In this document: positions 3,968 to 54,098 of the stretch, one piece after another | Layout: every line of letters begins with the position of its first letter | Numbering within the stretch: position 1 is the first letter of the stretch | NCBI GenBank assembly: GCA_958009085.1 | Contig: OY253672.1 | Location: 992,001 to 1,056,000, forward strand | From: Protoeuglena noctilucae | Lineage: Eukaryota | Direction: 5' to 3' | DNA length: 64,000 nucleotides | Position numbers and translations under genes: made by a program | Notes under the pieces: model-generated | Seen by the model: the letters and a program-made list of their open reading frames with translations, nothing else | Database searches by the model: none | What the model was told of the DNA's origin: nothing

Positions 3968-4890
3968 CTAGCTCAGCTTGTGAATACCCAGGGCCATCTC
4001 CGTCCCCCCCGGCTGCTCCACGAAGACGGCCTTGACTGGCGAGCCCTTGCTCGGGTTGTCGCCCACCGGCCCCTCCCCGCCCGTCGCCGTGAGGACCCCA
4101 CACACTGCGCACTGCACCCTCGCAGCCCCCGCCGCGTGCATGAGCATCACGCCGCAGCCGCAGCACGCCGTGTACGTGAACCGCGGGCCGTCCTGCCGCG
4201 TCCCCGTGATGGTCCCACAGGACGCACACCGGACGCGCTGGGCCCCAGCTGGACACATGAGCAGCTGCTGGCAGCCGATACACTGCGGGAAACGGCGAGG
4301 AGCGCGTGAGGAGACGGAGACTGTGTCAGCCAGCGCGTGGTCCCACCCACATCCCTGGGCCTGGTGGGACATCAGCCCTAGCGCGCCGCGCACCTGAACA
4401 TGTTGCATCACTGGCGTGGGTGCTTGATTCAAAACTTGGCAACCCCCGCACTGGATGTACCGTGCTCCCCGAGGGTAGGCCAGAAGGCACCCGCACTGTC
4501 CACAGATGATCTGCGGGGGCCGACGGACGCAGCCGGTGACGCGGTGCCGTTCCATGTCATCTAAGCGCCACGAGCGCGGTGCAGGAGCGCGGTGCCAACC
4601 GCGTGGCATTGTAACGACTGCAAGAGCTCCTCACCCGGCTCTGCTGCCCCTGCCCTTGCGCCTCCATGTGCGCCTGCCCTGGCCCCTGTACCTGCCCCTG
4701 ACCCCCGTTGACCAGCGGCCGACTCGTCGCGGTCGACAGGCTCGGCGAATGCTCCCTGTACCGTGCTCCCACGTCGGACAGGGTCTGCGTGCGCAGGGCA
4801 GTTACGTCCACCTCGCCCGGCCGCGGCAAAGGGCGAGCCATCCGCGCGCTTTCGTCCCTCAGAAACCGAGGCGCACCTGCTGCGCGGACC
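3968..4890 (-). CDS. LSD1-type zinc-finger protein (3 CxxC..L..P/A.GA....CxxC fingers); 5' end uncertain
   Basis: ICGQCGCLLAYPRGARYIQCGGC, CIGCQQLLMCPAGAQRVRCASC, CCGCGVMLMHAAGAARVQCAVC, and C-terminal VFVEQPG..MALGI as in plant LSD1/LOL. Confidence 0.85.
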
Positions 4891-10162: not shown

Positions 10163-13100
10163 ATGGGGACGTTCCGCGTGGCCCGATGGGCGCTGGCCGT
10201 GTCCGCGGCGTTGTTCGCGGTCGCTGCCGGTGTTCATGCCGCGCCGACCGTCACCCCCTCGACGTGCACCATCACGTACCAGGAGACGAGCACCACCTCG
10301 GCGACCACCGTGGCGCTCGGGAGCGGGACTTGCGGGTCCATGAACATCGTTCCCGACGCAAATTACTACGTGACGCAAATCACGGTCGCCATCACGACCA
10401 GCGCGCAGTCCTACGACACCCTGAGCGTGGACCTCACTCAATGTGAGTGACGCTGCGGCGCTGGGGGGCGCGCAGAGCTCTCAGACTTGCGCAAACGCGA
10501 TCTCTTGGCGCCGACTGTGTGCGCGGCGATGCCTGGCTGGGCCCCGCCGCTGTGCGCGCTGCTGCACAACCGCGCCATGCATGTGGAGGCCTCGAGGCGC
10601 CCCGCGCGCCCTCCGGCGGCCCGCGAACTAACTCGGCGTTCCCGTCTGTTCCTCACGCAGACACGGGCTTGGCGAGCACGTATAGTTCAAACACCCTGAC
10701 GATAAAGAACTCGAGCAACACTGCTTCGGCGACGTATCCCCTGGCCCTCAACTCGTCCACGCCCACCAACATCCTCAACGCCGTGGCGTTTGGCGATCCT
10801 GCCAGCAACTACAACCCGAGCCCGCTGAACCGGACCCTCACCGTCACCGTCACGACGTGCAGCATCGCGACCGCCACGGCAGGGGCCGCGTGCGACAATG
10901 GCGCGAGCCCCACCCTGGCGACGTCGACAGCCTCCACCGTCACGGTGAAGGTGACCGGCCGTCCAACATAACTCAGCGCCTCTGCCGAAGATGACCTCCC
11001 CCGGCAGCCCCACAAGCGCGTCTTGTCGCCCTGTGCGCAGATGTCGTTGTACAACAGCCCTCCCAACATCAGCCTCGACTGCCATGGGGGGAACGACACG
11101 GGAACCGGAGGCGACGATCCCGCTCGGTGCGGGGCGCCGACAAAGTACATGGAGAGCCCCAACACGGGCAACCTGGCCCTCTTCCCGTCGACGGTGCGTG
11201 CACCTGCAGACCTGCAGTGCTGAGGGAGATGCTCTGCCGTCCTAGCCTGGCATGTCCTAACTTTCTGCGACCTACCTGGCTCTCGTGCAGGCGAACAAGC
11301 CCACGGTGGATGACTACCGGACAGGCAACAGCTTCACGACGACGACGGACGAGAACATGCTCATCGTGGCGGCCGAGATCTACGTGACCGTGGGGTCGGT
11401 CACGGATCCCACGGCGAGCACCGGGGTGGTGGGCGATGCGGGGGACATCCTCTCCCTGAGCAGCACCGGCACGAGCGACGCGACGGGGGCGGGCATCGCG
11501 GTTGCCACGTATGTCACCCCGACGGCCACGACGGCCGGGAAGCTGGCGCTGTCGGGCAACGTCAACACCGCCACGGCGCAGAGCTCGGCGCTCAACTACG
11601 CCGCGGTGCTGTTTGAGGTCATCTACAGCAACAGCTCGTCCAACGCGAGTGACCAGTACCGCATCATATGGTTCCGGGTGAAGGACGCCGGCAACGTGGA
11701 CGCGAGCGGCAACCTCGTGGGTGACGGGAAGTGGAGCGACTTTGCCAAGTTCTACGTTGGCTTCCAGCGGTACAACACGGCCCCCATCTACGCCACCGTG
11801 CCCACGGCGGTGACGTTCACGGAGAACAACGCGAATCCGTACGGGGTGCACAACGGCCAGGCCCTTCTGTTCACCAGCACGAGCCAGGCGAGGACTGCGG
11901 GGCTGGGGAGGCATGACGCAGTCGCCCTTACCATGGTTTACCATGGCGCGTGGGGTGACCTGTGCCCATCCCCTCCCCTTTCCCCTTCCGCAGAGCTTGG
12001 CGCTGTCGGACACGGATTCGACCTACATGCTGAGCTCCACCGTCACCATCTCGGCGAACTACGACTCGACACAGGACTCGCTCGCGCTCTGCGACGCCTC
12101 CACGGGCTGCTCCGCCCTCCCCACGAGCATCACCTCGACGTGGGACGCGACGCACGGCACGCTCACCATCTCGCGCGCCACCGGGGCCTGCAACGTCAAC
12201 ACCGACACCACCTGCATCACTGTGGTGAGTCGCGGGTGCCCTGCGCCTGCGAGCCATGCCTTGCGGTTGCTATGCCATGCGAAGTGCCTGCTCAGCTGCT
12301 CGCAAACGCTCCCGGCGCGTCGTCTCCTCGCAGGCCGACATGCAGGCCGCGCTGCGTGCCGTGGTGTACCGCAACCAGCCGACAGGGCTGGACAACCCGT
12401 CTGGGAGCCCCCGCACGGTCACGGTGACGACGACCGACTTTGACCCCAACACGCTGGCAAACATGGTGGTGCCGACCAACTCGGGGACCAGCACGGTCAC
12501 GAACGGGACGGGGACGGCTAGCAACCCCAAGACGACCACTGCGTCCTCCGTGACGGTCACGGTGGTGGCGGTGGACGACCCGCCCGTGCCCACCTTCCCC
12601 AAGCTCGACGTGGTTTTCGTGGGCAAGTACACGGACGTGGTCCCGGCGGCCGACGCCGGCACCTTCACCGTGACGGACCCCGACAACACGACGCTGGCCC
12701 AGGCGTCCATCCAGATCGACACGAGCACGTGCGACACCACCACGGCGTCCGTCGCCCAGGTGGACACGCTGACGCTCTCCGGCACGTGGGCGGCCGGCGA
12801 CGTGGTGGGCGTGACGGTGAACGGCACCAACGTGCCCTACACGGTCGTCAGCAACGACCTCACCGCCAACGGCGACGGCACGGGCGGGACGGCCACGGCG
12901 ACCCAGGCGGCCACCAACATCGCCGCCAAGGTCAAGGCGGCCGTGGCGGCCAACACGAGCATCGCCAACGCCGTGACGGTGGGCAACAGCGCCGCAACCG
13001 TGACCTTCACGGCCAAGACGGCCGGCACGCCCTTCACGTCGGCCGTGTCGGCATACGACGCTAAGACGCCGCTCGTGAGCGTGTCGACCACGACGGCCAA

Positions 13101-16100
13101 CGCCTACCAGACGTCCCAGGTGTCGTCGGTGACCATCGGGGGCACCCCGGCGGCGGGGAACGTGGTGTCGGCCACGGTCGCCGGCACCGCGGTGTCGTAC
13201 ACGCTCGTCAGCGGGGACACGACTGCGACCGCCGCGACGGGCCTGGCGGCGGCCATCACCACCAACGCGACGACGTCCGCGGTTGTGACGGCCGTCACCA
13301 GCGGCAGCGTCGTCTACCTGACGGCCAAGACGTTCGGCGGCTCCTTCACCATCTCGGCCACGCAGACGGGCACGGGGGCGACGGCCACGGCGGCCATGCC
13401 GACGGCGGGCGTGGCCACGGCGATCGCCCAGGTGTCGACGGCCATCGTCTACGGCTCCTGGGAGGTGGGCGACGCCGTGACGGTCAACGTCAACACCTAC
13501 ACAGTCACCTACACGGTCACCAGCAACGACTTGACCGTCAGCGGCACTGGCACGGGCGGGACGGCCACGGACAGCCAGGCGGCCACCAACATCACCGCCA
13601 AGGTGGTCGCGGCCATCAACGCCAACGCGAGCGTCTCCCCCACGGTGCTCGCCACGCAGCAGGCGGGCACGGGGACGTTCACGGTGGCGGCCAAGACGGC
13701 CGGCGTCCCCTTCACGCTAACGGTGTACCCGACGCCCCGGCAGAGCGCGTCGCTGGTGACGACCACGTGGGGCGGGCTCGAGGACCAGCTGGCGATCCTG
13801 AGCAGCAACGTGCACAACTTCAGCCACTGCGTCGACTCGACGAACGCCATCATCGTGCCGGCGGCCGGCACGACGTGCGCGGCGGCCGGCGGCACTGAGA
13901 CGACCGACTGGGCCAAGGTCGTGGTCCCCACGTACGTGGCGCGGGCCTCGAACAGCGCCAACAACTGCGCGCTCACCCTCGTGGGCCAGACGAGCATCGA
14001 GAACTACAAGCGCATCATCCTGGCGGCGCGCCTCACGGTCAACAACTCCAAGACCACCACCGACACGTCCAACACGTACGCGGCGAGCTCGGGCAGCGGC
14101 ATCTCGATGCGCTACCTGTACACGGTGCTCAACGACGGCTCGGTGTCGACGTCGTCCACCGACTCCAAGCGGACCTACTGGGCCTCGAGCTTCCTGGGGA
14201 CGCCCACCGTGAGCTCCACAACCCCGTCGGCCGTGTCCACGACGGGCGGGCTCGTGACCGTCACTGGCACCAACTTCGGGCCCGTGGGCCCCTACGACGT
14301 CAACACGGGCGCGTCGTGCAGCCCTTACGACTCCAGCAACCGCCGCATCGCCACGTGCCTCTTCCCGGAGATCATCGGGGACTCGACGCAGGGGTGCCCC
14401 GCCGAGCCCTGCACGAGCGTCAAGGGCAACATCGTCTCCAAGGTCTACATTGGCGGCAACGAGTGCACGGGCGCCAAGGTTGTCTCGACCACGTCGCTCA
14501 CATGCACGGCGCCGGCGGGCAACGGGACGGGCATCGGCATCTGGGTCGTCACGTCCCAGTCGTCGTCCACCGCCAGCATGCTCAAGACCGGGACGGCCGC
14601 CAACGTGTTCAACTACAGCGGCCCGACTGTGGTGGGCATCGTGGCCCCCGTCAAGACGTGCGGGCCCAACTGCACCTCCAACGTGCTCACCATCCTCGGG
14701 ACCAACTTCGGCGCCCCGGGGACCACGACCGTCTCCTCCAGCGGCGGCGGCTTCGTCAAGATCACCTTCACGTACGACGCCAGCAACCCCGTCGCGTGCA
14801 CCAACGCCGCCGTGATCGACACCAAGGCCCGCGACCCGACGTGCACCACGTGTCCCTCCAACACGAGCCTCGACGGCACTCAGTACGAGGCAATCACGTG
14901 CACCCCACCAGCCGGCGTGGGGTCGGGCCACGCGATGCAGGTGCAGGTGCAAGGGCAGGCCTCGAGCGCCAGCAACACGTTCTTCAGCTACATCGCCCCG
15001 AGCATCACGAGCCAGGCCACCGTGTCCTTCATCCCCGTCAACCTGCTTACGGTGACGGGAGACAACTTCGGGCCCGCGTGCGGGGGCACCGGGACGGCGT
15101 GCATCACGAGTGGGACGGGGGTCAAGCTGCAGTCGCTGGTGATCTCCGACCCGTCGAGCACCACGACCGTCAACTGCACCACCAGCTTCCAGGTCGTGAG
15201 CGACACCCAGATCGTGTGCAAGCCGCCATCGATGCAGACCACCGTTGCAGCGGGCGTCTTCGGGTCTTCGGACACCACCAAGACGTACAACCTGACGGTG
15301 AACGCCGGGAACCAGACCAACACGGACGGCGCGAACAAGTTCAAGTACCTCGCGCCCAGCATCACGGCGATCACGGCCTACTGCAGCGCGGCGGCTGGCT
15401 GCACGACGCCGGCCGCGACCCTCAACTACAACGGAGACGACTTCCAGATCACCGGGACTAACCTGGGCATCACGACGTCAACCGTGGTGGTCTACTTCGG
15501 GACCTACGCCATGCCCGGCGGCACGGGGTACTCGGTTCCCACAGGGGGCCAGTCGGTGGCGGTGGCGACCAACGACACGACCATCAAGGGCTACGCGCCC
15601 GACTACATCACCACGGGCAACACCTTCACGCCCAACGTGTACGTGACGGTGGACAGCATCGCCAGCAACACCCTCAACCTCGCCTCCAACCTGTACCAGG
15701 GCCCTGCGCTGAGCAGCACCGTGGTGTACGGCGACCAGTTCGGCTACGGCATCAACGGCTACGTGGCGTCGTCCGACGTCACGTCCAGCTCGATACAGTC
15801 GACGGACGTGACGCACATCCAGGCGGACGGCTCTTGGATCACCATCACGGGGCAGAACTTTGCCCCCAAGTACGGTTTCACCCCGCGGCCGTTCAACACG
15901 GGTGAGAAGGTGACCATCAACGGCGTCGACGTCACGTTCAGCAACTCGGCCACGATGACGTACATCTACGACGCCTCGACCATCTACATCCGCCACTCGA
16001 CTGCCATTGACAGCACGGGGGCTGTGACCCCGCAGTCGGGGACGGGCCTACCCCTGGCCGTGACGATCAACGGCCAGGTCACGGCGACGGTGAAAACCTT

Positions 16101-19100
16101 CACCTTCCTCGGGCCCTACATCTCCCAGAAGGTCACCACCGGGTCGGCCGTGTACACGGAGGGCGGCCCCATCACAATCACGGGCAAGCGCATCGGCCCG
16201 ACGGGGTCCACGTACTTCAACGCCAGCACGTACACCAGCGCAGGCATCTGGCTGTGCCTCAGCTCGGACTGCACCAGCAAGGTGGCGTGCACGGGCGCCA
16301 CGGTGACGACTGTGGACTCCGTGGTGACGTGCACGCTGGACCCGACGGCAAGTGGGAGCAGCCCGCAGTTCTACGCGTTCGGCAACGAGCTCACGGGCTG
16401 GGCCGGAGCCGTGACAGGCTCGCTCGCCGCGGCCGTGAACGGGCGCATAAAGATGGTGGTCGCGTACACGGGCGACGACGTCACGGCGTCCACCACCAAC
16501 ACGGCCACGACCAACAACGGCCACGGGTTCGCGCTCGAGTCCGCGACGGCGTCCGGGACGGGCAAGTTCACGGTGTCCGCGCCCGTCATCACCTCCATCT
16601 CGCCCAGCACGGGCCTCTACACGGACGGCCGCACGACGGCGGGGTCCAACGTCATCACCATCACCGGGCACGACTTCGGCGGGGGCAATGGGACGGCCAT
16701 CACGGCCGCCAACGCCTCGCAGTTATTCGTGCGCGACGTGACGATCAACGGCAAGACGTGCCAAAACATCACGGTGGTGACGGGGAGCGCGAACAGCTAC
16801 AAGCTGACGGCGGCGGGCGACCCCGCCATCATCACGTGCCAGCCGGTGGCCGACATCGGCTCCAACAAGGCCGTCAAGGTCGTGGTGGGCAATCCCGCGG
16901 ACCAGACGACCTGGCAGTCCAGCAACGTCGACAAGACGGTGTCGTTCGGCACGCCCATCGTGACGGACGTGTTTGGCGCGGACGGTTCGAGCCCCAACCG
17001 CACGGTGCCTGCGGCCGTCCCCACCTCGCCAGGCTACAACGTGGTGACTATCCAGGGCATCAACTTCGGTGCCACCGGGTCCACGGTCCAGGTCATGTTC
17101 GACATGGACGGCAACGTGGCCACCACGGGGGACCAGGTCACGTGCGCGACGCCCACGACGGCCGGCGCCTGCGGGGGCAGCAACTGCGGTGTCACGGCGT
17201 GCGCCGTGTCGGACGCCAGCGGCAACTGCCTGGGCGACTACATCCGGTGCCAGTTCACGGCCCAGAACACGGGGTCGCTCGGCAGAGGGTTCCCACTGCG
17301 GATCATCTTCTGCGACGCCGACGGCAACAGCGCCTGCGACACGACCGCGGACCCCGCCGCCGGCGGGGCGACGGGGCTCGGGAGCCAGACGGGCACCAAC
17401 TACTGGCTGACGACGGTGCGCAGCACGGGCGCCTCCAACCTGGGCACGGTGAGCGGGCAGACGGTGCTGAACGTGACGCTGGCCTTCACGCCGCCGGCCA
17501 TCACTGGCATCACGGTGGCAGCGGCCACGGACGGATGGGTGGGGACCTCCACGCTGACCATCACGGGGACCAACTTCGGGAGCCTGACGACCGGCAACCC
17601 CTCCAACACGCAAGTGGCCGTGCAGATCCTGCACACCACCGAGAAGCCCACGTGCACGTCGGTCGCGGCGTGCGGGACCACGTCCGGGAGCACGTGCATC
17701 ACGTGCAGCTACACGTGCGAGGGACAGGCGTCGTCCCCGCTGCCCTGCGTGCCCAACACCGACCGCATCGTCGCCATCAAGGTGGCCGGGCAGATGTCCA
17801 ACTACTATGTTTGGAAGGGCGGCGTCCTCGGCCCGCTGATCAAGAGCCAGGCCAACGGGGGCGTGTCTGCGCCGTACATCTTCGCCAGCACGGTGTACCC
17901 GATCACCATCAACGGCTACCGGTTCGGGAGCACCAGCACGGACGCGGCCGTGACGCTCGACTCAATCCGCTACTGCGACAAGACGACCTTCACCAGCTGC
18001 TCTACCGACAACACGAGCGGCACAATGGCCAGCGGCAACTGGGTCTCTATGACGACGACCGCCCGCGGCGGGACGGCGCCGAACCTGTACGTGACGGGCC
18101 AGACCCCTGCGCACAGCCAGACGGTGGGGGACGGCTCGGACGCGCTGACGGTCAACGTGCGGTTCACCTACTCGGCCACGCTGTGCAACTCGAGCTGCAC
18201 CACGTCCAACCCCAACAACACAACCACCCCTTGCGCGGGCGTGCAGGGCATGACGGACTGGACCAGCACCACCGACTGGAACACCATTGTGTGCACCAGC
18301 GCGGCATCGGGGGCGACGACGCAGGTCGCCACCACCTACTCGACGAACTCGACCCCGAGCGCGCAGGACAACGGGATGGCGGCGCTCGAGTACAAGGCGC
18401 CGACCTTCTACACGTCAGTGGACTCGGCGCTGGGCAGCACGGTCCGCGTGGCATCGCAGACGCAGGACGGGGCCAACTTCATCACGGCTCACACCACGTC
18501 CGGCACCTATACAACGACGTCTCAGGCGATTACGCTCATGGGCGAGGGCTTCGGCAACGTCGTGAACAACACTTACATCAACGGCGTCAGGATTGATACA
18601 GAGGCCGCGACAGGAACGTACTTTGGGCCCACAACGTATTCCGCCACCGTCAGCACCAGCAACTCGTTCGTCATCACGCTCCCGGATGGCATCGGCATCA
18701 CGTTGCTGACCGTCCAATTCAGCTGCGATGCCGCCTCGCAGCTCGGGCAGCCGCTCCCCAACACGTCGACGAGCGGGTCTGCGACGCAGAGCACGCAGAC
18801 CGCAGCCGCTGCAAGTCAGGCGCAAGTGGACACGATCGTGCTGTCCGGGACTTACGAGACCGGGGACACCGTGAAAGTCACGGTCAACGGGACCACGGTC
18901 TCCTACTTGGTGGTGGTGGCCGACTTCCAATACAGCGGAGCTGCGGCCACGAACGCCCAGGTGCTGGGCAACATCGCCACCAACTTGGCCGCGGCCCTCG
19001 CGGGTAACGCCACGGTAAGCGCCGCGGTGACGGCGACCGCCAACTCGTCGACGGCGACGGTGACGCTCACGTCCACGTGCGGGGCGTCGTGCACGGCGTC

Positions 19101-22100
19101 GACGGGCTTCACGACAACGGCCACGGTGGTACGCACTGCCATCACGGCCAGCGACTACGCCTCCCTGACCTGCCGCGGCACGACGTCCACGCTCAAGATC
19201 CTCCGCACCGCGCCGGCAATCTCGAGCAGTCTGCAGACGGTCGGTGGCGCGGGGGGCACCCTGACCTTTGCCGGGACAGACTTCACGACGCCCGCGCTCG
19301 TGTCCTCCACCTCCCTGGTCACGGCGGCGCTGTACAGCGGCACGAGCCTGTACCAGAGCCTCACGATCACCTCCATCACGTACGACTCCACCAGCAACAC
19401 CTTCAGCATGGTGACGACGGTGCCGGCCGGCACTGGCACCGGGTACGACGTGCACGTGACGGTGCAGCTTTGCAGCACCTGCACGGCCATCGTCGGCATC
19501 TCGTCGGGCAAGGTCTCTTTCACGCTGCCCCAGATCACCAACATCACCTCGCTGCCCACGCTGTCGACCCAGACGACCGTGTCGTACACGTACACGTCGG
19601 GCACGGGCACGGCCACCGACACCCTGACGGGCGCCTGGATCACCATCCCTGGGACCAACTTCGGGCCCAACCTGACGGTGGCGCAGGCGGCCCAGCGGCA
19701 GCTGACGGTCAGCTTCACGTACAACGGCGCGCAGACGACCTGCCGGAGCCCCTTCATCACCAACTCGCAGGTCGACACCACCAGCGGGATTCAGTCATCC
19801 GACATCGTGTGCTCCATGGCCTGCCTGACGGGCGAGTCCAACTGCACCGGCACGGTCGGTTCCGGGGGCAACTACGTGCCGTCCTTCTCCATCAACGGGT
19901 CCGCCTGGGCAGTCAACACCAACAGCAAGGTGTTCAGCTACGCTGCACCCACTATCACGACCACAAACTCCGTCAACATCTGGGGCACGGGCGTGGTGAC
20001 CATCACAGGGACCAACTTCGGCCCGACCGACAGCTCCACGGTGTACATGCCCGCCGGCGGGGCGCGTGGCCTCACGGTGGCCTTCTCGAGCCCTGCTCTG
20101 GGCCTCGCCAGCACCGCGTGCATCAGCCCGACGGTGACGGGCCACGCCACCATCACGTGCACGCCACCCAACCTGAGCGGCCAGCTGTCCCTGACCAACA
20201 CCACGGTGACGGTGACCGTGACGGTGGGCCCCTCGGGCAACACGCAGTCTGTCACGGCCAACTACACGTTCTCCCCGCCCGTCGTCTCGACCGTCGGCCA
20301 GCCGTCTGTCTTCGGCGGCGTCATCACCATCGTGGGCACTGACTTCAGCCAGACCGACCAGAACGGGTCGCTGGGAGGCCTGTACATCAGCGGCTTGGCC
20401 GTGTCCAACCTGACGCCCTACAACGCCCAGGTGACGACCACGAAGATCGTCCTCACGTTCCCCTCGTCCTCCGGGGGCACCATCTACAGCAACACGCCCA
20501 TCGACGTGGTGGTGGGGGGCGTCAAGAGCACGATCGTGAACGCGTCGACGGCGCCCGTGGCGGGGACGGTGGACCCCCGGTACCTCAACTCGGTGGGCCC
20601 CACGGTCGTGGCGACGACGACGGTCCCGACGTCCGGCGGCGTCGTGGTCATCGCGGGCACGGGCTTCCCGCCCGTGACGGGCACCGTGGTGGGCACGGGC
20701 AGCGACTCCGTGACGGTGGGGACGTTCAAGTGCACGGACGCTATGTCTATCGACAACACCAACGCGCACTGGCAGACGAGCCTGAGCCAGTACAACCAGA
20801 TGACGTGCACGCTGCCGGCGGGCACCGGCAAGAACAAGCCCGTGACGATGATCTTCTACACCAAGACGTCCTCCAACGACGCGTCCTTCCAGGGCTTCTC
20901 ATACGCTGCCCCCACGGTCACCAGCGCCGTCACCTCCTCCGGCAGCACCAGCCTGGTGCCCGGGAGCCCCATCACCCTCAACGGCACCAACTTCGGCACC
21001 GACGCGTCGCTGGTCCTCGTGACGGCGCAGCTGTGCAGCACCCCCAACACCCCGTCCAACTGCAGCACCAACCCCACGAGCACGTGCACCAATGTGACCG
21101 TCACGCAGACCACCGTCTCGTGCACGCTCCCCGTCTCCACCAACACGGTCGGCACCACCGTGGTGCTCAACGTCACGGTCGACAGCGTCGCCATGACCAC
21201 CCCGTACGGCATCACCATCGCCCAGCCCACCATCACGAGCATCCTCAGCGGCGGCGCCGCCGTGCCGCCCACGGGCGGCGTCGTTACCATCAGCGGCTCC
21301 AACTTCGGCCCCCTCTGCGGCGGCACCAACCCCAGCTGTTCGTCGACCATCGCTGCCGTCACGTTCGGCGCCAACGCGGTGGCGTGCACCAGCCCGTCGG
21401 TGACGACGGCGGACTCCACGGGCAACGGTACCGTCATCACGTTGACCCTCCCGGCCGCTTCGACGGCGGGGACCACCCCCTTCGCCGCAGCCGACCTCGG
21501 CGCGGGCGGCATGTCGGTGTACGTCAAGGTGGGCCCGTCGGCGACCACTGCCGTCTCCTCGGCCGCCTACTCCTTCTCGTTCGCCGCCCCGACGGTCACC
21601 GGCATCACCTCCTCCGGCGGCGGCAGCCTCCCCGGGACCACCACGCCCAGCGCGTACAAGGGCCAGACCATCACCGTCACGGGCACCAACTTCGGCACGG
21701 CCACCGAGGGCCCCGTAATCTCCATCCACCACGCGCTGGACTCCACGGCCATCTTCAACGTGCAGTCGTCGGACATCGTGTCCGTCTCCAACACCCAGAT
21801 CGTGTTTAAGGCGCCCTCGGGGTACGGCTACCTGGCCTACATGCAGATCAACATCTCCAGCCGCGAGGCGACCTACACGGCCCTGAGCCTGACGACCACC
21901 CGGCCGCCGTTCCGGTTTGCCACGCCCGCCGTCCTGCCGGCCGCCCAGCAGCTGGTAAACGGCGTGAGCGTCTTCACCACGCCGACGAGCATCCCGCTGG
22001 CCTCCAACAACTCGCGCGGCAACACCAACGGCCTGGTCACGATCGTGGGCACGGGCTTCGGCCCCGTCTCGGCCGCGGGCGCCAACGGCATCCAGGTGGT

Positions 22101-25100
22101 GCTGCACAAGTCACGGGCCACCGCCACGGGCACGGTGGACAACGTGCGGGCGTGCACGAACCCTGCGGTCACGACCGAGGACACGGTCTTGGTGTGCGAG
22201 CTGAGCACGAACGGGGTCGGGTCGGGCTGGGACGTGTACGTGGGCGTGGGCAGCAAGACGTACAGCCCGTGCGTGGTGCAGATCAACGTCGGCTCCACGC
22301 CCTTTTCCTTCTCCGGCGCCGACTGCCAGGTCAACGGGTTCACGTACAGCGCCACCGCCACCTTCACGCCCATCGCCAACAACACCGTCGGGGTCGGGGC
22401 ATGGGCCTTTGCGCCGCCGGTCGTGTCGAGCGTGCGGTTCTGCCAGGTCGGCGACACGTACTGCAAGAACGCGGACTACTCGCAGCAGGCGCAGCCCGCG
22501 GTGGTGTCGACCGGGTCAGTGACGAGCGTGGCCCAGGTCAGCACGGCGACCTTCTCGGGGACCTGGGAGACGAACGATGTGGCGACCCTCACGATCGGGA
22601 CCAAGGCGGTGAGCTACACGGTCGTGGCGGCCGACCTGACGGTGAACGGCAGCGCCGGGACCGCCGCGCAGGTGCAGGCCAACGTGGCTGCCAAGCTGGC
22701 CGCGGCCATCACGAGCGACGCCACGGCTGGCGCGTTGGTCACGGCCGTCGCCGCCAGCGGGGTGATCCGGCTGACAGCCAAGACGGGCAACTTGAGCATC
22801 ACCATCGCTCAGAGCGTGACCAACGGGGGCACGGACAACATGCAGGCCATCGCGGTGGCCACGATCATCCCGGCCGCCGGCACGTCGACCAACAAGCTCT
22901 ACATCACGGGGACGAACTTCGGCACGGCGTCTGAGACCATCACGGCCCTGTCCAATACCAGTGTCACGATCAACAACGCGGTCCAGGTGTGGCTGGTGGG
23001 CCCGGGCGACGGCACGTGCACGCGCAACAACGTGGCGCTGCCGGGCGTGGAGTGCAAGACGGCGACGCTGGTGACCGCCCAGACGGCGATCGAGTGCGTC
23101 GTGCCGGCCAACATCGGCGTCGGCATCAACGTGCTGGTGGAGGCCGGCGGGCAGGTCGGCACGACCCCGACCTCGCCCACGACCGCGCAGCAAGTGAGCT
23201 TCCAGGCGCCCGACATCACGTCCGTGACGTCGTCCGCCACCCAGGGCAGCACGATCACCGTCACGGGCACCGGCTTCGCGAACCTCATCCCCGACACGAC
23301 CGTCGACAGCACGTCCTGCTACGCGTCGTGGTTCACGGCCAACGCGGTGCAGGTGCTCTACAAGCAGAGCGACACTGCCCAGTACGGCACGTCGGCCAGC
23401 TGCACCTCGTTCGCGGTGGCCACGGTCAACAGTGTGGTGCAGGTCACGTGCACGGCGCCCAAGGGCACCGGCACCAACCACTCCCTGCAGATGGTGGTGC
23501 GCGGCGTCACGTTCACGGCCAACTCGGGCCAGGCGCAGTCCTTCTCGCCCTTCAACTACCTCGCCCCGACCGTCACGAGCGTGACGGCGCCCCCCGTCCT
23601 GGGCGGGACCATCACGATCAATGGCACCAACTTCGGCAACGTGCTGAGCTTCGTCCAGGTCCAGATCTACCCCCGCAGCGAGCTGAGCAAGACCCTCGCG
23701 CAGCGCACGGCCCTCGCCGCGACGGACGGCTGGTGCTCCAACACGGGTACCAACGCCAGCCTGGCGGTCCCCACCGCGGCCGCCGACACGGTGAACAAGA
23801 CGGGCCAGCACTTCCAGCTCACGTGCACGGTGCCGTCCGGGATCGGCTACAACTTCTCCGTCAAGGTCACGGTCGACTCCCAGGACTCCGGCAACACCGG
23901 GGACGGCCTGCTGGCGTACCTGCCGCCGACCATCGCGCCCACCACGACGCTCTCGACCGTCAGCGGCACCACGTACGCCGTCAACCCGCGCGTGGGCAAC
24001 CTGGTCGGCCTGACGACCATCACCATCGCCGGCACCAACTTTGGCACCCCCGACCTGCTGAGCAACCCCCCCTCGTACCTCTCCACGGGCGCCATCCAGG
24101 TGTGGTTCTCTACCGACACCGCCGCCACGGCCAACGGCGCCAGCAAGGCCGCGGCCACGTCCTTCCAGGCCGCCCAGTCCTCCGTGGTCATCTACCGCCC
24201 CGACTCGGCAAGCGACATCTTCTACATAATCGCCGCTGTCCCCGTGGGCGCCGGCAAGAACGTCAACGTGTTCGTGAGGGCCGACGGGCAGTTCTCCGCC
24301 GCGAGCAACCGCGCCCTGTACGACTTCCCGCCCCCCGTGGTGACCTCCACCAACGTGCCCTCGGCCGCCGGCGGGGCCGACACGAGCGGGGACGGCAAGG
24401 GCCACATCCTGACCATCACGGGCCAGAACTTCGGCCCGGCCAACACCCCCGTGACCTCCGTCATGGTCGGCGGGTACACGTGCAGCAGCCCGGTCGTGGT
24501 GAGCAGCACGAGCATCACGTGCGCCATGCCGGCCGGCAACGGCTCCCAGTACGTCGTGCAGGTCACCATCCTCGGGTCCACGTCGGACCCCGGGACGTGG
24601 CGCATGCGCTTCCGGTGCCCCACCGTCTCGGCGGTGTCGACCACGCTCACGGGCGCCGTGGCGGCCGCGCCCGCCTGCAACGGCACCGACTGCGCCCCGG
24701 GCCGCACGGGGCAGAAGGTGGTGGTGCAGGCGAAGGAGCTGGGCCCGACGACGGACATCTACAAGATGAAGGTCAAGTTCCTCCAGCCGGGCTCCACGGA
24801 CGCGAGCCTGGCCTACTGGACGGCCGTGGGCACGTCCGACGCGACGAGCGACCTCGCCTTCGCGCCCAGCTTCCAGCAGCCGGACAACCAGGGCGTCTAC
24901 ACGCTCCTCGTCACCGTGCCCGTCGGCTACGGCAGCGGCCTGCCGGTCGTGGTCGAGGTGAACGGCCAGGACTCCCTGGGCATGTGCGGTGACACGCCCG
25001 CCCGGTCCATCAGCGGCATTGACTCGTCCCTCAAGTTCTCGTACCCCAAGCCCGTCATCCTCGCGGCGGACTCGGTCGGCACCGAGGGCGGCGTCATCAC

Positions 25101-27730
25101 CGTCCACGGGGAGAACTTCGGCCCAGCCGGGACGCAGGACCTGGAGGTGGACCAGGTGTCGTACGCCGGCATCAACATCACGTGCGCCAGCGCGCAGGTG
25201 CTGCCCTCGTACGACAACGTGCGCATCACGTGCACCATGGGCCCCGGCCTCGGCAGCAACAACCAGCTGTACGTCAAGCGTGGGCCCAGCGCGGGCCCCG
25301 GTGGCAACCAGCAGGTCACGTCGGACGCCTTCACGGGCTTCACGTACGCCGCGCCCGCCATCTCCCAGGGCGGGATCGTGTGCTACCCCGCCACCGCCAG
25401 CAACGGCCTGCCCGACAAGTCAACGTCCTCGAGCTCTTGCTCGGCCGGCGACTGGGTGTACATCACGGGGACCAACTTCGGCAACAACCCGGCCCAGACG
25501 GTGCTGGCCATCTTCGACCCGGGCCTGGTGGACAGCAAGACGAACCAGCCCACGATCCTGGCCACGGCCTCGCCCCCCAGCAACTGCAGCACGGCCACGG
25601 GCGACGCGTGCACGGCGACGCTGGTCATGTTCAAGATGCCGCCGCTGTCGGGCCAGAAGCGGTCGGTGCAGGTGCAGCTGCTGGCCAAGAACCCCGCGTA
25701 CAAGTCCTACGCCATCAGCTCGCCCTTCAACGCCACGCCCGTCTTCTTCTCGTACAAGCCGCCCACGGTCGATGGGGCCAACCAGGTCCCCACGTCGGGG
25801 GGCACGGTGACCATCACGGGGAGCCACTTCGGCGTCGTGAACGACGCGGTGGGCGTGTCGATCGGCACCCTGACGTGCGCCAACGCCAAGGTGACGGCGT
25901 CGGACGCCACCACGGGAGACGGCACGGGCATCCAGTGCACGCTGGGCGCGGGAGTCGGCGGCAGCATGGACGTGGTCGTGACGGTGTGGCCCTCGCAGCC
26001 GACCGCGCAGCAGACGGGCTTCCACAAGGCCCTGTTCAGCTACATCGCGCCCACGCTCACCAGCGTCGCCGGCCCCGGCACCGGCGCCTCGACCGGGGCT
26101 GCCCAGAAGAGCGCCACGGGCACGTCCGGGCAGACGCTGACGCTCACGGGCACCAACCTGGGCCTCAACGCCTCGGACATCACGGTGCAGTTCCTCCGGG
26201 CCGACCAGTCGGTCGCGGGCACGTGCGGCAGCGTGCCGGTGGTCAAGGACCACACGCAGATCACGTGCGTGACGCCCAACATCCAGGGCCTCAATCTGGC
26301 CATCGTGGCCGTCGTGGGGGGGCAGCCCAGCCCCACGTCCGGCGCCCCGCAGTTCACGTTCGACCTGGCCGGGTGCAAGAACCCCGCCGCAGAGAACTAC
26401 AACCCCAACGCCACGTCGGACAACGGCACGTGCGTCATCATCGGCTGCACCGACCCCAACGCCCTCAACTACACGCCCCCGCCCCCCAACGGCACGGTCA
26501 AGGACGGTGAGTGGGCTGAGTGGGATCGGACGTCCCAAGGCGCGGCGCACCGTAGCCGTGGAGTCGGTGTGTGCTCCCTGCTGCCTGCCACATATACAGC
26601 CACCCTCTGCCTGCGCCCGCAGATCCCAAGGGCTCGGTGTGCATCATGCCGCCCGTCACGGTCGAGATGCGACGCGACTTAGACTACAACCAGGTAAGGA
26701 CCTCTCCCTTCTTCCCACTCATGCGCCGCCCATGCCTGACGCATCGCAGTCAGGCTCCAGGGCCAGGAAAGACCCCCATCAGTCACCGCAAAACGTCCCT
26801 CCGCCCTCGCCCCCACAGTTCCTTGCCAACCAGTCCTTCTGGATCAACCAGCAGATCCAGAGCCTGGCCACCAACATGAACATCTCCACGAGCCGCATCA
26901 CGTTCATCTCGGCGCGCCAGGGCTCGACCATCTTCAACTGCCAGATCGCCGACGTGGCGCCCAAGGACCGCTCTCCGGGGGAGCCCTCGGCGGCCCAGGC
27001 GGCCCAGACGCTCAACACCGCCATCAAGGATGGTTCGTTCCAGGACGTGAGTGGCCACTGGAGAATGGCACGCACCTTCATGCGTTGCCAGGGGTTGCAT
27101 GCACAGGACCCGGGGGGCCACGTTGTGCGCCACACAAAGCCTCTGCTCTACGACACAGATCGCGACCCCCACGTTCGTTTCCTCAACCGCCCTTGGTCCG
27201 CTCGCCTCCCGCAGAACCCCCAGATGCCGCTGCTGAGCATCACGTTCGTGACGAACGGCAACAGCCAGGTGTCGGTCCCGAGCGACCAGACGGTGCAGAC
27301 GGCCCGGGGCGACAAGCGCATCTCCAAGTACAACTACGTGGCGCTGGCGCTGGGCGGCCTCGCGCTCCTTGTCCTCGCCATCTTCTCCAAACGCATCCTC
27401 AAGTTCCTCTGCCGCCGTCGCTCCGCCAAGTCCGAGGCCGGCCCTTGGCCCATCGTCGGTCGGCCCCGCTCGCGCACCAAGACGCGGGTGTACCCGGACG
27501 ACATCGAGACGGCCAAGGACGAGGACATCAAGGCCCTCGCCGAGCCTCGGAAGGAGCAGAAGGTCCTGGTGGCTCCGGCCGATGCCGCCCAGGGGGTCAA
27601 GGGCGGCGCCGACGCGGTGGCGGGACCCGAGGCACGCGCCGTGGTCGTCGCCAACCCGCCGCGCCCCCCGCAGCAGCAGCAGCAGCGCGCCGGCGGCAAC
27701 GTGTACGCCATGGGCCCGATGCTGCTCTGA
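10163..27730 (+). CDS. Giant (~5,512 aa) type-I membrane glycoprotein with ~30 IPT/TIG domains; 9 exons (10163-10442, 10661-10950, 11041-11193, 11291-11887, 11994-12224, 12334-26506, 26623-26693, 26819-27046, 27215-27730)
   Basis: Signal peptide MGTFRVARWALAVSAALFAVAAGVHA. Exon phases join consistently. 4808-aa ORF with ~30 repeats of P.ITS....GG.ITITG.NFG..C......I.C..P.G.G. TM YVALALGGLALLVLAIFS followed by basic KRILKFLCRRR. Confidence 0.9.
12751..13725 (+). repeat. Three tandem ~100-aa 'AQV.T..L.G....GD....TV.G..V.YT' modules inside the giant gene (further copies at ~18817-19130 and ~22528-22860)
   Basis: Visible protein repeat. Copies 1 and 3 also share long near-identical DNA (cagcaacgac..ggcacgggcgggacggccacgg..ccaggcggccaccaacatc). 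Confidence 0.85.
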
Positions 27731-30552: not shown

Positions 30553-33500
30553 ATGGCGCAGCCAAACAGGCCCTTGGACGTCGTGTATGGTGAGGATGGC
30601 GATGCGTTGGAGGTCTGCGCCCGTGGGAAAGGCCGGTATGCGGGGGCAGAAGCAGTTCACCTCGTGCGCCCCTGACATGGGATTTGCGGCGAGTCTGTGG
30701 CCGTGCTGGTGCCAACTTCACGCCTTCATGTGGAATAAGAAACAATGCTTCACGCGCTCGCACGGCATGGGCTGGGGAGGCCGTGCCATGCCGGGACGCT
30801 GCGACACAGCTCGTGGCATGCCCGGGCCCCTCTGACCCGGCCAGTCACGCTGGACGCCCCGGTCGCCTCGCTTCTCACGCAGACACGACCATGGCGCTGT
30901 CCAGCATGAAGGACCATTTCCGGGAGGCGTCCCGCGCGACGGGATTCAAGGTCACGCCCCAGCCCATCTTCACCAACTTCTTCTCCGAGCTCTCCCACCA
31001 TCCGGCGCGGCAGGCGGCCATCAAACCGGCCATCCGACTACCTCCGCACATCAACCCCTACGCGCGGCCACCGCAGCCAGAGTCTCGGGTGGCGCGCACG
31101 CTCCGCTCGATGACGCGGCAGGTCGAGGGGGCGCCAAACCTGCTGTACTACACGCGCCCCCTCATGGCGCACGACACGGACTCGGTGGGTCCCGTGAAGC
31201 TCCACCAGGACGTCCGCCCCGTGGCCCAGCCCATCGACGCCAGCGCCGCGGCCAAGCAGGGGCGGCCTGACCCTTCGGCCTTTGCCCCCGAGGGCCACCG
31301 CACCGTGGGGACCCAGTCCGCGTTCCGGGAGTCCGAGATGCAGACGACGCCATGGGAGCCCGACTACGTGCTCCCCGAGAACCCCGCCCCCAAGCAGCGC
31401 GCGCTGATGGAGAAGCACCATTCGGACGTGCCAGAGATCCTCTACCTGCAGCACCTCCATTTCGGGGAGGGTCTCCCGGCCGGGGCGCAGGAGATCATGC
31501 AGGTCAAGAAGCTCTGCGAGAAGCGAGCGTTTGAGGCCTCGCTCCCGCCCATCAGCGGTGAGCCGCGAGCGCCGGCGCAGCTAGCACGTCGCGACGATGA
31601 CCCCGCCCGCCAACCGCGCCTTGCCGCCCGCCCCGCAGACGCCGCCCGCCTGCCCGAGCGGCAGCGCATGCTCGAGGAGTGGGAGACGAAGGAGTGGGCC
31701 GAGCGTGAGCAGGAAATTGAGGGTTTGCAGGAGGAGCGCCTGGCCATCATGGAGGCAGCCCTGGAGGTGAGAAGCCAGCCGACGATGCCACGGGTTGTCA
31801 GGGTCTCTGCGCATTCCGCGGCCGACCCAGGCCACCTGGAAAGAGCGCACACCATGGTGGTTTGCCCTGTGCGCCCGCAGCGCCGGGAGGCGGCTCAGGA
31901 CGAGGGTCGCGAGGCCCGGCTGGAGACGATGCGCGAGACGCGGATGCAGACCAAGTCGCAGTCGTTCGCCGCCATCCAGCGCCGGCGCATGCGCACCATG
32001 CGGCAGCTGACGTCACTGAGGGAGAAGAGCGTTCCCAAGGGCACCAGGCCTTCCATCATCGGTGACTGCTCCCCAGCAACTGAGCGGCGCACTTGCCATT
32101 GCCGCCGGCGCCGTGTCCACTAGCTGAGGACCGTTTGCCTTTGTCGGCCCCTGCAGATGAGTACGCCGACTACGGGTCCCAGATCTACGCGCCCGTGCAG
32201 CGCCAAGGGCGCTTCCCCGAGACGCAGCCGCGTGGCAAAGAGATCGATCCGTCGCCGTTCGAGCCGGCGTCGCTCCGGCAGCTGGACGACCTGCACGAGA
32301 CGCTTGGCCCGTCGCGCCTGCACGCCACCGTCAAGGTCCCACCCTCCCGGGAGTCCCTGACGATGACGGCGCGGCAGCGGCGCCTGAACGCCTCCGCGCG
32401 CGACGTGGAGTACATCGCGGACCTGCTGGAGGGGAGCAAGTCGGCGGGGGGGCGCGGGTTCGGGGCCTGCTGGCCCGCCCCGCTCCAGTCGGGGGGGCCC
32501 AAGGGCACGGGAACGGGGAAGCGCAAGGCTGGGCGTGCGATGCAGCGCCCGGGCACGCCGGAGGCGCCGCGGGAGGCTCCGGACGCGCACCTGCACCGGG
32601 CGGCGACGGTGCTCCAGAAGCTGCTGCGGGGCCGGGCGGCGCAGAACCAGATGCTAGCGATGAGGGAGCAGCAGCTGGAGCTGGTGCGGGAGCTGCGCGT
32701 GGCGGACGCGATGGCGAGCGGGGCCGAGGCGGAGTCCCTGCAGCAGCGGCACGAGCGGCTGCGGGCCGTCGACGCCCAGCTGGGCCAGGCGGTCGCAGAG
32801 CTGCTCCAGACGCTGGCGGGCGGCGACGGCCCCGAGCGCGTGCAGCGCCTCCGCGAGGCGCACCTGGCCATGCGCCGGCAGGCCCTGGCGGACCTCGGGG
32901 CAGGGCACCGGGACGCCGCAGCCCTGGACATCCAGCAGGCCGTGCGGGCGTTCGTGGACCGCCGCCGCGCCTACCAGCGGCGCGCCATGGAGACGCAGAG
33001 CCACGAGGGCGCGCTGCAGCGGCAGCTGGAGCGCCTCCGCGCGTCCATGGTGAGCAGGATGGGCTGCCGTGGTGCTTTTGTGCTTTTGAGGTGCTGAGGG
33101 GTCTGCCATGATGCCTGTGCGACTGGTCCGGCGCCCCTGGCCCTACGCAGGAGCAGGAGGTGTCGAGCGTGTCGGAGGAGGAGGCGCAGATGCCAGAAAG
33201 CGCCATGCGGAGGGAGGCACCGGGGCTGGAGGGTTCAGCGTCCTCCGCAGCAGCGGCCGCCCCGCAAGCGCGCGACGGGTCGGGCCCGGAGATGGCGTCG
33301 CCGGTGCCGACCTCGCGGCCTCTCACCGGACAAGTGCTGGGTCGCAACATTGGCACCGCGGCTTCCAAGGGGCACGCCGTGGAGCAGCTGCTGCTGGACC
33401 TCGTGTCAGACATCGCAGGCGAGTGACATTTCCACTGTGTTCGCATCGCCGGCCGTCTACAGCTGCCATGCTGCGGCAGTCTAAGCACTGCGCGGTGGTC

Positions 33501-51783: not shown

Positions 51784-54098
51784 ATGTTTGGCCGCTTGCC
51801 GCGCTTCGCGGGATCGATGGTGGCGCGCGGCTCACGCATATCCGTTGATCACACGTGTCCCTTGCGATGGAGAGGCTTGCGGGCGACGGGGCGCGCCGGA
51901 TGGGCGCACTGGCCGCGATGCGGTTGCCTTGTCGAGCCCCTCCGCCGACACGCCGGGCGACCGTCGCCCACACTGGTCACACGTGCGGCAGGAACATCGT
52001 CCAGTAATGGATCGACCTCCACGGAAGCCCACCAGCGCTTGGCGCGCCACAGCGGGCTGTCAACATCGGGGTGCGTATCGACGTCGGCTCGAGGGCGCGA
52101 CATGGCGAGCGCGCCTATCGCAGAGCGTAACTTGGGGCCGTCACCAACCGCAGGGAGGACACCATCGTGGCTGTTGTGACTCAATCGGGCGCCGGGAGCG
52201 TGTCCATTCTGCGCATCTCCGGGGAGGAGGCAGTCCCCGTGGCGCGGAAGCTTTTCCGCCCCAGCCGGGATGCGCTTTCCGCAAGTGTCAAAGGAAGCAA
52301 ACCGCAGTGGGCCCCGCGTGCCGGTCGCGTGCACTACGGGCGCCTGGTGGATGGCAATGGGCGCATGGTTGACGAGGTCCTGCTACTCTTCATGCGCGCG
52401 CCGCGCTCTTACACTTGCGAGGACGTCGTGGAGCTCCACTGTCACGGAGGCCAAGTGGTGAGCCTTGGGGCTGCGAGGAAACGTGGGGCCAGGCGTCTGC
52501 GTGGGATCACAACCAATTCCAATGCACGTGACTGGTCGCAGACGGTGCAGCGCGTGCTGCAGGCCTGCTTATCGGCGGGCTGCCGCCTGGCGCGGCCAGG
52601 GGAGTTCACGCTGCGGGCCTTCCTGAACGGCCGACTGGACTTGGCTCAGGCTGAGGCGGTGCAGCAGCTCATCAGCGCGCGCACTGTCGCAGCGGCCGAC
52701 AGCGCCCTGGCCGGCCTCAACAGCGGGGTGGGCGACGTTGTGCAGGAGCTCCGGTGGGTGGGCTGCCTGCCATGGGGCTTGGCGGGCGTGGAGGTGCAGC
52801 TGCGTTCATGAGTGTACGCACAGACTGCGCTCATGTTTCGCAGGATGGAGGTGCTGGACATGGTGGCGGAGTTGGAAGCCCGGTTGGACTTTGAAGAAGA
52901 CCTGCCGGCCTTTCGCCAGGGCGAGTTCGTCGCTCGTCTCGCACGGATCGAGGACGCGGTCCGGGCGGCCCTGGCGACGGCGCAGCTGGGGCAGCTCATG
53001 GACAAGGGCCTGCAGGTGAGAGCGCGTTGCAAGTGAAATGGCAGGAGATGGGGGCCGCATGCGCAGACTGGCCCCTGTGTGTGCGGCTTGCCCTCTCTCC
53101 GGTCGCCACTGGCCGTGGGATGGCATGGGGTTGTTGGCACTCCGCAGGTGGCCATCCTCGGGCGCCCGAACGTGGGCAAGAGCTCTCTGATGAACCGCTG
53201 GACCAACACCGACCGCGCCATTGTCACCGACATTGCGGGGACGACGCGGGACATCGTGGAGGGGGCCCTGTCGGTGGGCGGCGTGCCCGTGACCCTGCTG
53301 GACACGGCCGGCATCCGCTCCACGGCAGACGCGGTCGAGACGATCGGCGTGGAGCGCGCGCGCCGTGCGGCACGGGACGCGGACCTCGTCTTGTGGGTCG
53401 TCAACGCTGCCGAGGGGGTCACCGACGACGATTTCGAGGTGCTGCGGTCCATTCGAGGGGCGGGCGGGGCCGCGCCGGGCCCGGGCTCCACTGGGGGCGC
53501 AGCACGGGCCGCACGAGCGCCCGTCGTGCTGGGAGTGGCCAACAAGGTGGACCTCGCGCCGGACTTCTCCGTCGATCGGATCCCCGCTGAGGCCGCCGCG
53601 GGGTGCCAGGTAGGCGATGGTCCGGGCAAGCGGCTGTGCGTGGTCTCTTCAGCTCAGCCATGTGACGGAGGCTGGACGTTGGATGCTCGCAGGGGTTCGT
53701 CGCCATCTCCGCGATGACGGGGTTTGGCATCAAGCAGCTAGACGACAAAATTTTGGAGATGGTGGGGGCGCCCGGCATGGCTGCTGGAGGCGTTGGGTGG
53801 GCCGTGAACGCGCGGCAAGCGGAGGCCCTCACGCGGGCGGCTGAGGTGCGCATCGCGCCGGAGCGACAAGCAGCGGCTCCGCAGTCGACTGTCGCCACTC
53901 TGCCAGCGGGATCCTTGCCATGACGTCTGCCTGCAGGCGCTGGAGAGGGTACAAGAGAGCGTGACGGAGGAGCTGCCGGAGGACTTCTGGACCGTGGACC
54001 TCCGCGACTGTCTCGTGGCCTTGGGGGAGATCACGGGCGATGATGTCACGGAGGAGGTTCTCGACAGCATTTTTAGCCGCTTCTGCATTGGGAAGTGA
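51784..54098 (+). CDS. mnmE: tRNA modification GTPase MnmE/TrmE; start approximate
   Basis: [74 protein letters not shown]. Confidence 0.96.

Follow-up and report, generated by a model that had tools for sequence, protein, structure and literature searches.

The 64,000-nucleotide stretch of the Protoeuglena noctilucae genome considered here (NCBI GenBank assembly GCA_958009085.1, contig OY253672.1, positions 992,001 to 1,056,000 of the forward strand; hereafter the window) raises the question of why five copies of a module resembling outer parts of phage tails and bacterial flagella should occur in a marine green alga, encoded by one gene and placed inside other domains of its product. The gene (10163..27730, forward strand, as for all features below unless indicated) encodes a protein of 5,512 residues in which the module occurs as a triplet within the fourth of four adhesin repeats and as single copies within two TIG domains. 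The explanation we favor, and consider probable, is that the module is a horizontally acquired surface-decoration domain that inserts into loops, has been passively shuffled, and forms adhesive or spacing knobs.

The copies were delimited with a profile hidden Markov model (HMM) built from 127 database segments, excluding those of the alga. Run on the host protein, it reports exactly five domains with scores of 71.6–93.5 bits and nothing else above 1.6 bits, compared with a maximum of 5.1 bits in 100 locally shuffled host proteins. Copies 1 (12742..13101, 93.5 bits) and 3 (13414..13770, 79.0 bits) are of a long form having a loop in common with Rhodospirillales flagellar proteins, copy 3 being a duplicate of copy 1, and copy 2 between them (13102..13410, 71.6 bits) is of a short form without this loop. 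Copies 4 (18808..19173, 83.7 bits) and 5 (22519..22866, 83.4 bits) lie in the TIG array. The period within the triplet is 120 and 104 residues. Copies 2–5 are 37–52% identical to copy 1 in protein sequence, and at the DNA level copies 1 and 3 share 73% identity across 224 nt. The initial annotation, made from the sequence alone, had placed the triplet at 12751-13725 and the single copies at ~18817-19130 and ~22528-22860; these positions are borne out by the database-derived HMM, which sets the extents of the triplet at 12742-13770, whereas the module ends proposed there fall ~15 residues short, each copy closing with a further strand.

All five copies are in frame within the 4,808-codon frame of exon 12334-26506, and the triplet region is not a misassembly: a marine metagenome contig spans 10000-14883 without a single letter of difference, although the run it comes from is marked as one that may have supplied this DNA. 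Transcription extends through the copies. A spliced RNA contig covering 19814-28000 includes copy 5 and the membrane anchor, another covers copy 4 (18764-19140), and another includes part of the triplet. Searches of the 26.3 Mb genome (27 contigs) with two queries found no further module copies; the one other match (L006, E-value 0.13) was dismissed as a chance match in a low-complexity frame.

The module comprises ~110 residues. AlphaFold modeling of copy 1 with 40 alignment rows gave a predicted local distance difference test score (pLDDT) of 92 and a predicted template modeling score of 0.85, with three strands, an 18-residue helix, and four strands, the last of which is a return strand. 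This return strand is present in every algal copy and aligns with the sheath domain described below. The modeled fold is not an immunoglobulin (Ig) sandwich, and no Ig fold is named among the 50 listed structure matches of the copy 1 model. In a search of 48,161 chains, nine of which reached Z >= 8 in the first pass, the top match was residues 89-186 of the cyanophage A-1(L) sheath (8kee; Z 12.7, root mean square deviation 1.7, 96 residues aligned, 28% identity), and the P-SCSP1u nozzle (Z 11.7) and residues 98-212 of the Mu sheath (9khy; Z 10.5) were also found. Further matches include the Kp7 and T7 nozzles, the PhiTE sheath, a crAss capsid protein, CbpD (Z 8.6), and GbpA (Z 8.3), as well as flagellar proteins, namely Pseudomonas flagellin (4nx9, Z 7.7) and FliD (Z 7.3-5.3; 6kty at Z 7.3). 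Foldseek likewise places sheaths in the top rows (8kee at E 2.6e-5, then the Milano and PhiTE sheaths), in agreement with a viral library, and a second AlphaFold model, of copy 5 (pLDDT ~90), returns the same list of matches, with 8kee at Z 11.1. The likeness to the protruding domain of Mu-type sheaths and to flagellin inserts, suggested in the initial annotation, is thus upheld by structure as well as by the sequence comparisons that follow, sheaths ranking highest, flagellin and FliD lower, and the Ig-like outcome that would have spoken against it being absent.

Sequence comparisons connect the same families. Among Protein Data Bank (PDB) sequences, a 40-row module profile matches 8kee (E 1.2e-4) and, at E 3.6e-4 to 0.034, a further three phage proteins, two of which are named tail sheath (the PhiTE sheath at 3.6e-4); the five-copy profile by itself finds no match among PDB sequences. 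Copy 2 matches positions 103-207 of PHROG 165 (tail sheath) at E 6.7e-6, and PHROG 165 is matched by 12 of 30 chosen module relatives. Neither Pfam nor NCBIfam contains a family for the module, the Pfam family GbpA_2 does not match the algal copies, a word search found no short-length homologues, and tblastn of copy 2 against the phage collection gave no match. Taken with the fold, these comparisons demonstrate that the module is homologous to the outer domains of contractile tail sheaths and of flagellar axial proteins.

By sequence, the nearest relatives are not sheaths but hook and hook-associated proteins of the flagellum, a point that the initial annotation overlooked. The module is a widespread one: at E<=1e-3 the five-copy profile retrieved 315 sequences from 1.84 billion representatives, and a scan of 149 of the top 150 of these, the remaining one exceeding the length limit, identified 57 flagellar axial proteins, 19 surface proteins or adhesins, and two Tc-toxin-A-like proteins, the remainder having no informative family; a TIG domain was found in none of the 149 (0/149). 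Two relatives (P0060 and P0100) combine Tc toxin A-type domains with arrays of about seven modules. A second search gave 44 proteins, the named ones being mostly FlgE, FlgK, FlgL, and flagellin, several from Rhodospirillales. Over ~120 residues, copy 1 shares 53-55% identity with three proteins (P0158, P0170, and P0013) that have exactly its unusual loop, which was counted 34 times in 186 proteins. Among 185,579 GTDB genomes the loop motif occurs at 12 loci, nine with Rhodospirillales-type titles (7 of 10 contigs), and the long-loop motif of copies 1 and 3 has no match in the viral contigs searched. Module matches in the ESM Atlas are bacterial clusters without names (0.93-0.94), with a lead to Flagellin_IN (22% of members).

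Copy 2 is nearer to phage-like proteins. In a tree of 32 rows chosen by similarity, from which the loop columns were removed, it groups with four such proteins with support of 95/90, and a Phage-tail_3 protein on a viral contig (L073, 1132-5862) has the short form of copy 2 in mid-protein. A single clade is borderline for all five copies in the approximately unbiased test (p-AU 0.0495) and has a p-AU of 0.185 for the other four. Two separate sources for the algal copies are possible. A larger tree of 185 rows, obtained from a quick search with three Tc toxin A-like proteins left out, gives no firm placement for four of the copies. The module was apparently acquired horizontally from bacteria. 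The GC content at third codon positions (GC3) is 0.88-0.98 in the copies and 0.94-0.98 in the remainder of the exon; because the copies equal the rest of the exon in this respect, the transfer would be old.

Whether the copies interrupt their host domains was examined at each of the three sites. Adhesin repeats 1-3 (10241..12570) are uninterrupted and belong to a bacterial giant-adhesin repeat family found in DUF4347 and cadherin-like proteins; an HMM of the bacterial repeats scores repeat 3 at 36.6-48.8 bits and repeats 1-2 at 10-18 bits. The repeat has no Pfam or NCBIfam model and no sequence match in the PDB, and the ESM Atlas gave weak leads only; the repeats themselves were probably transferred from bacteria. 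The repeat is ~160 residues long, and its family is common in bacteria, being present in 10 of 151 genomes of one class. Homology between the module and this repeat, raised by a score without composition correction, was rejected on further testing.

In repeat 4 the N-terminal half (12571..12741, aligned to profile positions 1-50) scores 12-18 bits over its 56 residues, a value reached by 0-1 of 1000 shuffles. The triplet follows at the position given in the initial annotation, between AQASIQIDTSTCD and LEDQLAIL, as the translation confirms. The sequence immediately after it picks up at the next family motif, with later motifs in order throughout the presumed C-terminal half (13771..14196). A pattern for this half, drawn after the alignment had been seen, matches the exon only past the triplet (5 overlapping windows of 916) and matches 16 of 20,000 shuffles and 7 of 38 family members.

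The TIG domain split by copy 4 (18394..19215) is interrupted between strands F and G, with a cysteine on either side of the insert, and a profile of the protein's own TIG domains gives its strands A-F 25 bits. Copy 5 lies between strands A and B of its host domain (22411..23208), where the A-to-B spacing is 163 residues as against ~10-46 in domains with a recognized strand A of their own. On this TIG profile the upstream strand A contributes 5 bits, a gain equaled by 45 of 1000 random 11-mers, most of which are other A strands; the last strand of the module in the same role adds 1 bit (46.3 bits in total, as against 50.6 for the upstream piece). An AlphaFold model of this site gives pLDDT ~90 for the module and 61-72 for TIG strands B-G. 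As judged by motif order, the interpretation that the host domains are interrupted, with collinear halves, is supported at all three sites, being firm for the N-terminal half of repeat 4 and for the copy 5 site and weak for the C-terminal half of repeat 4 and strand G at copy 4. Insertion of the module copies into loops is probable, and to this extent the initial proposal of a mobile loop-insertion domain stands; the word mobile is apt in evolutionary terms only, as discussed below.

Bacterial-type proteins provide parallels. The module splits a Big_9 domain in two of them (P0124 and P0083); the first also has it in a VCBS-type domain, placed between the last strands, and in another protein (L025) it lies inside FlgE D2. 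A count over 182 proteins gave 250 module arrays, made up of 140 single modules and 110 tandem arrays. In P0002, 12 modules at a 91-residue period and a full thirteenth are followed by ~11-12 repeats of 18 residues that resemble the last strand, and in P0007 (180-660) four modules are followed by three return repeats. Such arrays, with return repeats similar in number to the modules, were noted in P0002 (490-1925 and 1914-3131), P0007 (180-660), P0017, P0037, and P0154. Their layout implies that the domains would be set inside one another up to 12-13 deep. Together with the end-to-end alignment of the module with internal segments of sheaths, these return repeats lead us to infer that the N- and C-termini of the module are adjacent.

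A mechanism consistent with these observations can be proposed. The return strand would pair with the first strand and so hold both ends side by side, which would explain the tolerance of loops: the domain could fit into a surface loop without breaking its host. An algal ancestor may have gained the module from marine bacteria, from alphaproteobacterial flagellar or adhesin genes, with copy 2 perhaps from a phage-type source, by recombination at the DNA level; the recipient would have been a gene for a surface protein in which bacterial adhesin repeats were already present or were co-acquired. Duplication within the gene would then have produced copies 1 and 3, as their DNA identity suggests. 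Repeat 4 and the two TIG domains would still fold, and the copies would stand out sideways as knobs on a membrane-anchored rod, with three of them close to its distal end and the other two along the shaft; since each algal copy keeps its own return strand, a single loop would bear the triplet as three knobs. By analogy, the knobs may be non-catalytic and may adhere weakly to polysaccharide or to the surfaces of microbes, or serve in spacing and shielding. This role leans on two sources: additional sheath domains are described as lying away from the tube, as accessory, and as perhaps aiding stability or adsorption and possibly adhesive (PMC9230969), and domains 2-3 of GbpA are reported to bind the bacterial surface, domain 2 distantly resembling a flagellin domain (PMC3257281). 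A sheath with three domains is described as poorly ordered on the outside (PMC10966104).

Several observations weigh against this explanation. Taken by itself, the C-terminal half of repeat 4 lacks significance (scores as high are reached by 235 and 1139 of 2000 shuffles), the N-terminal half joined to a shuffled C-terminal half does as well in 352 and 1772 of 2000 cases, and hhalign is flat for repeat 4, with probabilities of 0.2% and 2.5%. Strand G at copy 4 is matched in quality by 121 of 1000 random 13-mers. In the AlphaFold model of the copy 5 site, residues 1-41, which contain TIG strand A, are undocked with pLDDT ~33, no alignment rows having covered this strand. As to origin, the trees give no resolved donor for copies 1, 3, 4, and 5, and the databases searched are mostly prokaryotic, so that eukaryotic relatives are under-sampled. 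Finally, a shared fold by itself shows no function.

The weak C-terminal half of repeat 4, the weak strand G, and the undocked strand A also favor an alternative in which the modules, though real sheath-like domains, were recombined in as plain links of the chain and the interrupted host domains have lost the ability to fold as units, with repeat 4 a relic and the two TIG domains lacking one edge strand or borrowing one. The 110 head-to-tail arrays among the 250 in the databases are in keeping with it, as is the finding that GbpA-type matches span only residues 1-110 of the model and exclude the last strand. Against it stand the return strand kept by every algal copy and aligned with the sheath domain, the well-conserved N-terminal half of repeat 4, whose 56 residues would not be expected to fold alone, the family motifs, which within the exon restart only directly past the triplet, and the poorer performance of the last 11 residues of the module than of the upstream piece as strand A. 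We regard this alternative as unlikely.

A broader proposal extends loop insertion to function and evolution: the knobs would derive from two prokaryotic machines, the alphaproteobacterial flagellum (copies 1 and 3) and phage tails (copy 2), and be displayed from the loops of a giant rod to bind or lure bacteria or viruses, and the module would represent a superfamily of self-nesting insertions, as yet without a name, joining sheath, nozzle, flagellar, S-layer, and adhesin surfaces and having passed into eukaryotes as well. Taken as a whole this is improbable. The narrower notion that the knobs were retained for mimicking bacterial flagella or the surfaces of phages and for binding particular kinds of bacteria, phages, or algal viruses, whether for prey capture, partner recruitment, or as a decoy, gains from the high identity to flagellar outer domains including the exact loop, from the distal position of the triplet, from the possible phage-type second source of copy 2 (its tree support, the borderline one-clade test, and the same form in the viral protein), and from the binding of bacteria by GbpA domains 2-3 (PMC3257281). 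The Thr/Ala/Val-rich composition nevertheless inflates identity, the p-AU value is borderline, and the domain occurs also in S-layer-like, RTX, and phage proteins, which points to no single known ligand; such a specific role is highly doubtful. That the module is instead a self-mobile or spliced-out element spreading by its own mechanism (a transposon-borne exon, an intein-like element, or an auto-cleaving domain), as the word mobile in the initial annotation might imply and as three separate in-frame insertion sites within one gene might suggest, is extremely improbable given that the genome searches with two queries found only the five copies in the host gene, that no inverted repeat pairs the borders of a copy among the 25 longest of 129 listed, that no intron lies at any module border, that copies 4 and 5 are retained in RNA contigs, that GC3 is host-like and the divergence old, and that the fold matches are structural surface domains.

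The module thus sits in a marine green alga, in a spliced and transcribed eukaryotic gene whose product is a membrane-anchored rod; its eukaryotic nature had escaped the initial annotation. The nine exons of the gene model, which keeps its frame open throughout, are 10163-10442, 10661-10950, 11041-11193, 11291-11887, 11994-12224, 12334-26506, 26623-26693, 26819-27046, and 27215-27730. The sixth, of 14.2 kb, is alone of such size, the others being 71-597 nt. Seven of the eight introns are joined in RNA contigs from marine metatranscriptomes, 10951-11040 being the exception, and intron 11888-11993 is of the GC-AG type, on which RNA contigs from two runs agree. The protein begins with a signal peptide, followed by the four adhesin repeats, ~30 TIG domains (Pfam TIG at E 2e-46 in 15 stretches, and 29 motif matches), two Cys-rich repeats, and a C-terminal part with a short domain without a Pfam match, one transmembrane helix, and a cytosolic tail; the signal peptide and the transmembrane helix were assigned by eye. 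The two GC(K/T)-x-P-x-A-x-NY repeats (26365-26505), upstream of the membrane anchor, have no match in Pfam or NCBIfam over that interval and are of a type that occurs in bacterial surface proteins. No algal orthologue of the protein was found in one metagenome scan, which gave two bacterial-type adhesin loci only. Other TIG genes are present in the genome (G000:C16:638661-645575, C18:872640-872894, and C6:1353681-1353914), without a module match. A Pfam scan of 27 frames in the neighborhood found a family in three, an LSD1 zinc-finger gene (3968-4609, reverse strand), CFAP91 (30684-32123), and an MMR_HSR1 GTPase (53079-53717). The RuBisCO small subunit in the same genome is nuclear and intron-split. 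The genome and these genes suggest a marine green alga that possesses flagellar genes.

The fold is already known, and it is the eukaryotic setting that is new. Searches of the open literature, subscription journals and supplements being outside their scope, turned up neither the domain in a eukaryote, nor a profile shared by the sheath, flagellar, and adhesin copies, nor nesting of the module. The outer domain of contractile sheaths (A-1(L) gp9 8kee, Mu 9khy, Milano, PhiTE, and PHROG 165 at ~100-207) has the same fold, is homologous in sequence, and like the algal module is an internal segment of a longer chain. Unlike the sheath proteins, the algal protein has no sheath core (Phage_sheath_1 or 1C; Pfam gives TIG only) and no context of phage tail genes, its module resides in a eukaryotic single-pass membrane protein, and viral contigs yielded no match to the long loop that copies 1 and 3 have. 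According to PMC9230969, moreover, most additional sheath domains are Ig-like, whereas the algal module is predicted not to be. The outer domains of flagellar axial proteins (FlgE, FlgK, FlgL, FliD, and flagellin) are the closest in sequence and share tandem arrays and, in FlgE D2, insertion; the algal protein differs in having no D0/D1 helices for export and polymerization (Flagellin_N/C, Flg_bbr_C, and FliD_N/C were not found, including in the terminal exons scanned) and in that each of its copies is closed by its own return strand, while many bacterial arrays are nested. GbpA/CbpD domain 2, the T7-type nozzle, the crAss auxiliary capsid protein, and T4 gp11 match in fold at Z 7-12, with identities of 13-18% and, for GbpA, without the return strand.

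The bacterial giant adhesins (DUF4347, cadherin-like, and Big_9 proteins; WP_190299964.1, WP_102877767.1, P0124, and P0083) are the source family of algal repeats 1-4, and one of them, P0124, combines this repeat with loop-inserted modules; the algal protein differs from them in being spliced and in having a signal peptide, a TIG array, and a transmembrane anchor. Eukaryotic surface proteins with multiple TIG domains include fibrocystin/PKHD1L1, plexins, and Dictyostelium Tgr, and the algal protein appears to resemble these in being a single-pass membrane rod of TIG domains. The comparison ties together, by sequence and fold, the outer domains of phage sheaths, of flagellar hook, cap, and filament proteins, and of adhesins, for which there is no shared Pfam model. 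A transcribed eukaryotic surface protein with a module more than 50% identical to bacterial copies represents an apparently clean domain-level transfer into a green alga and offers a testable way into the question of which ligands such dispensable outer domains have, and a knob that would accept three different Ig-type loops and nest within itself would constitute a natural display scaffold.

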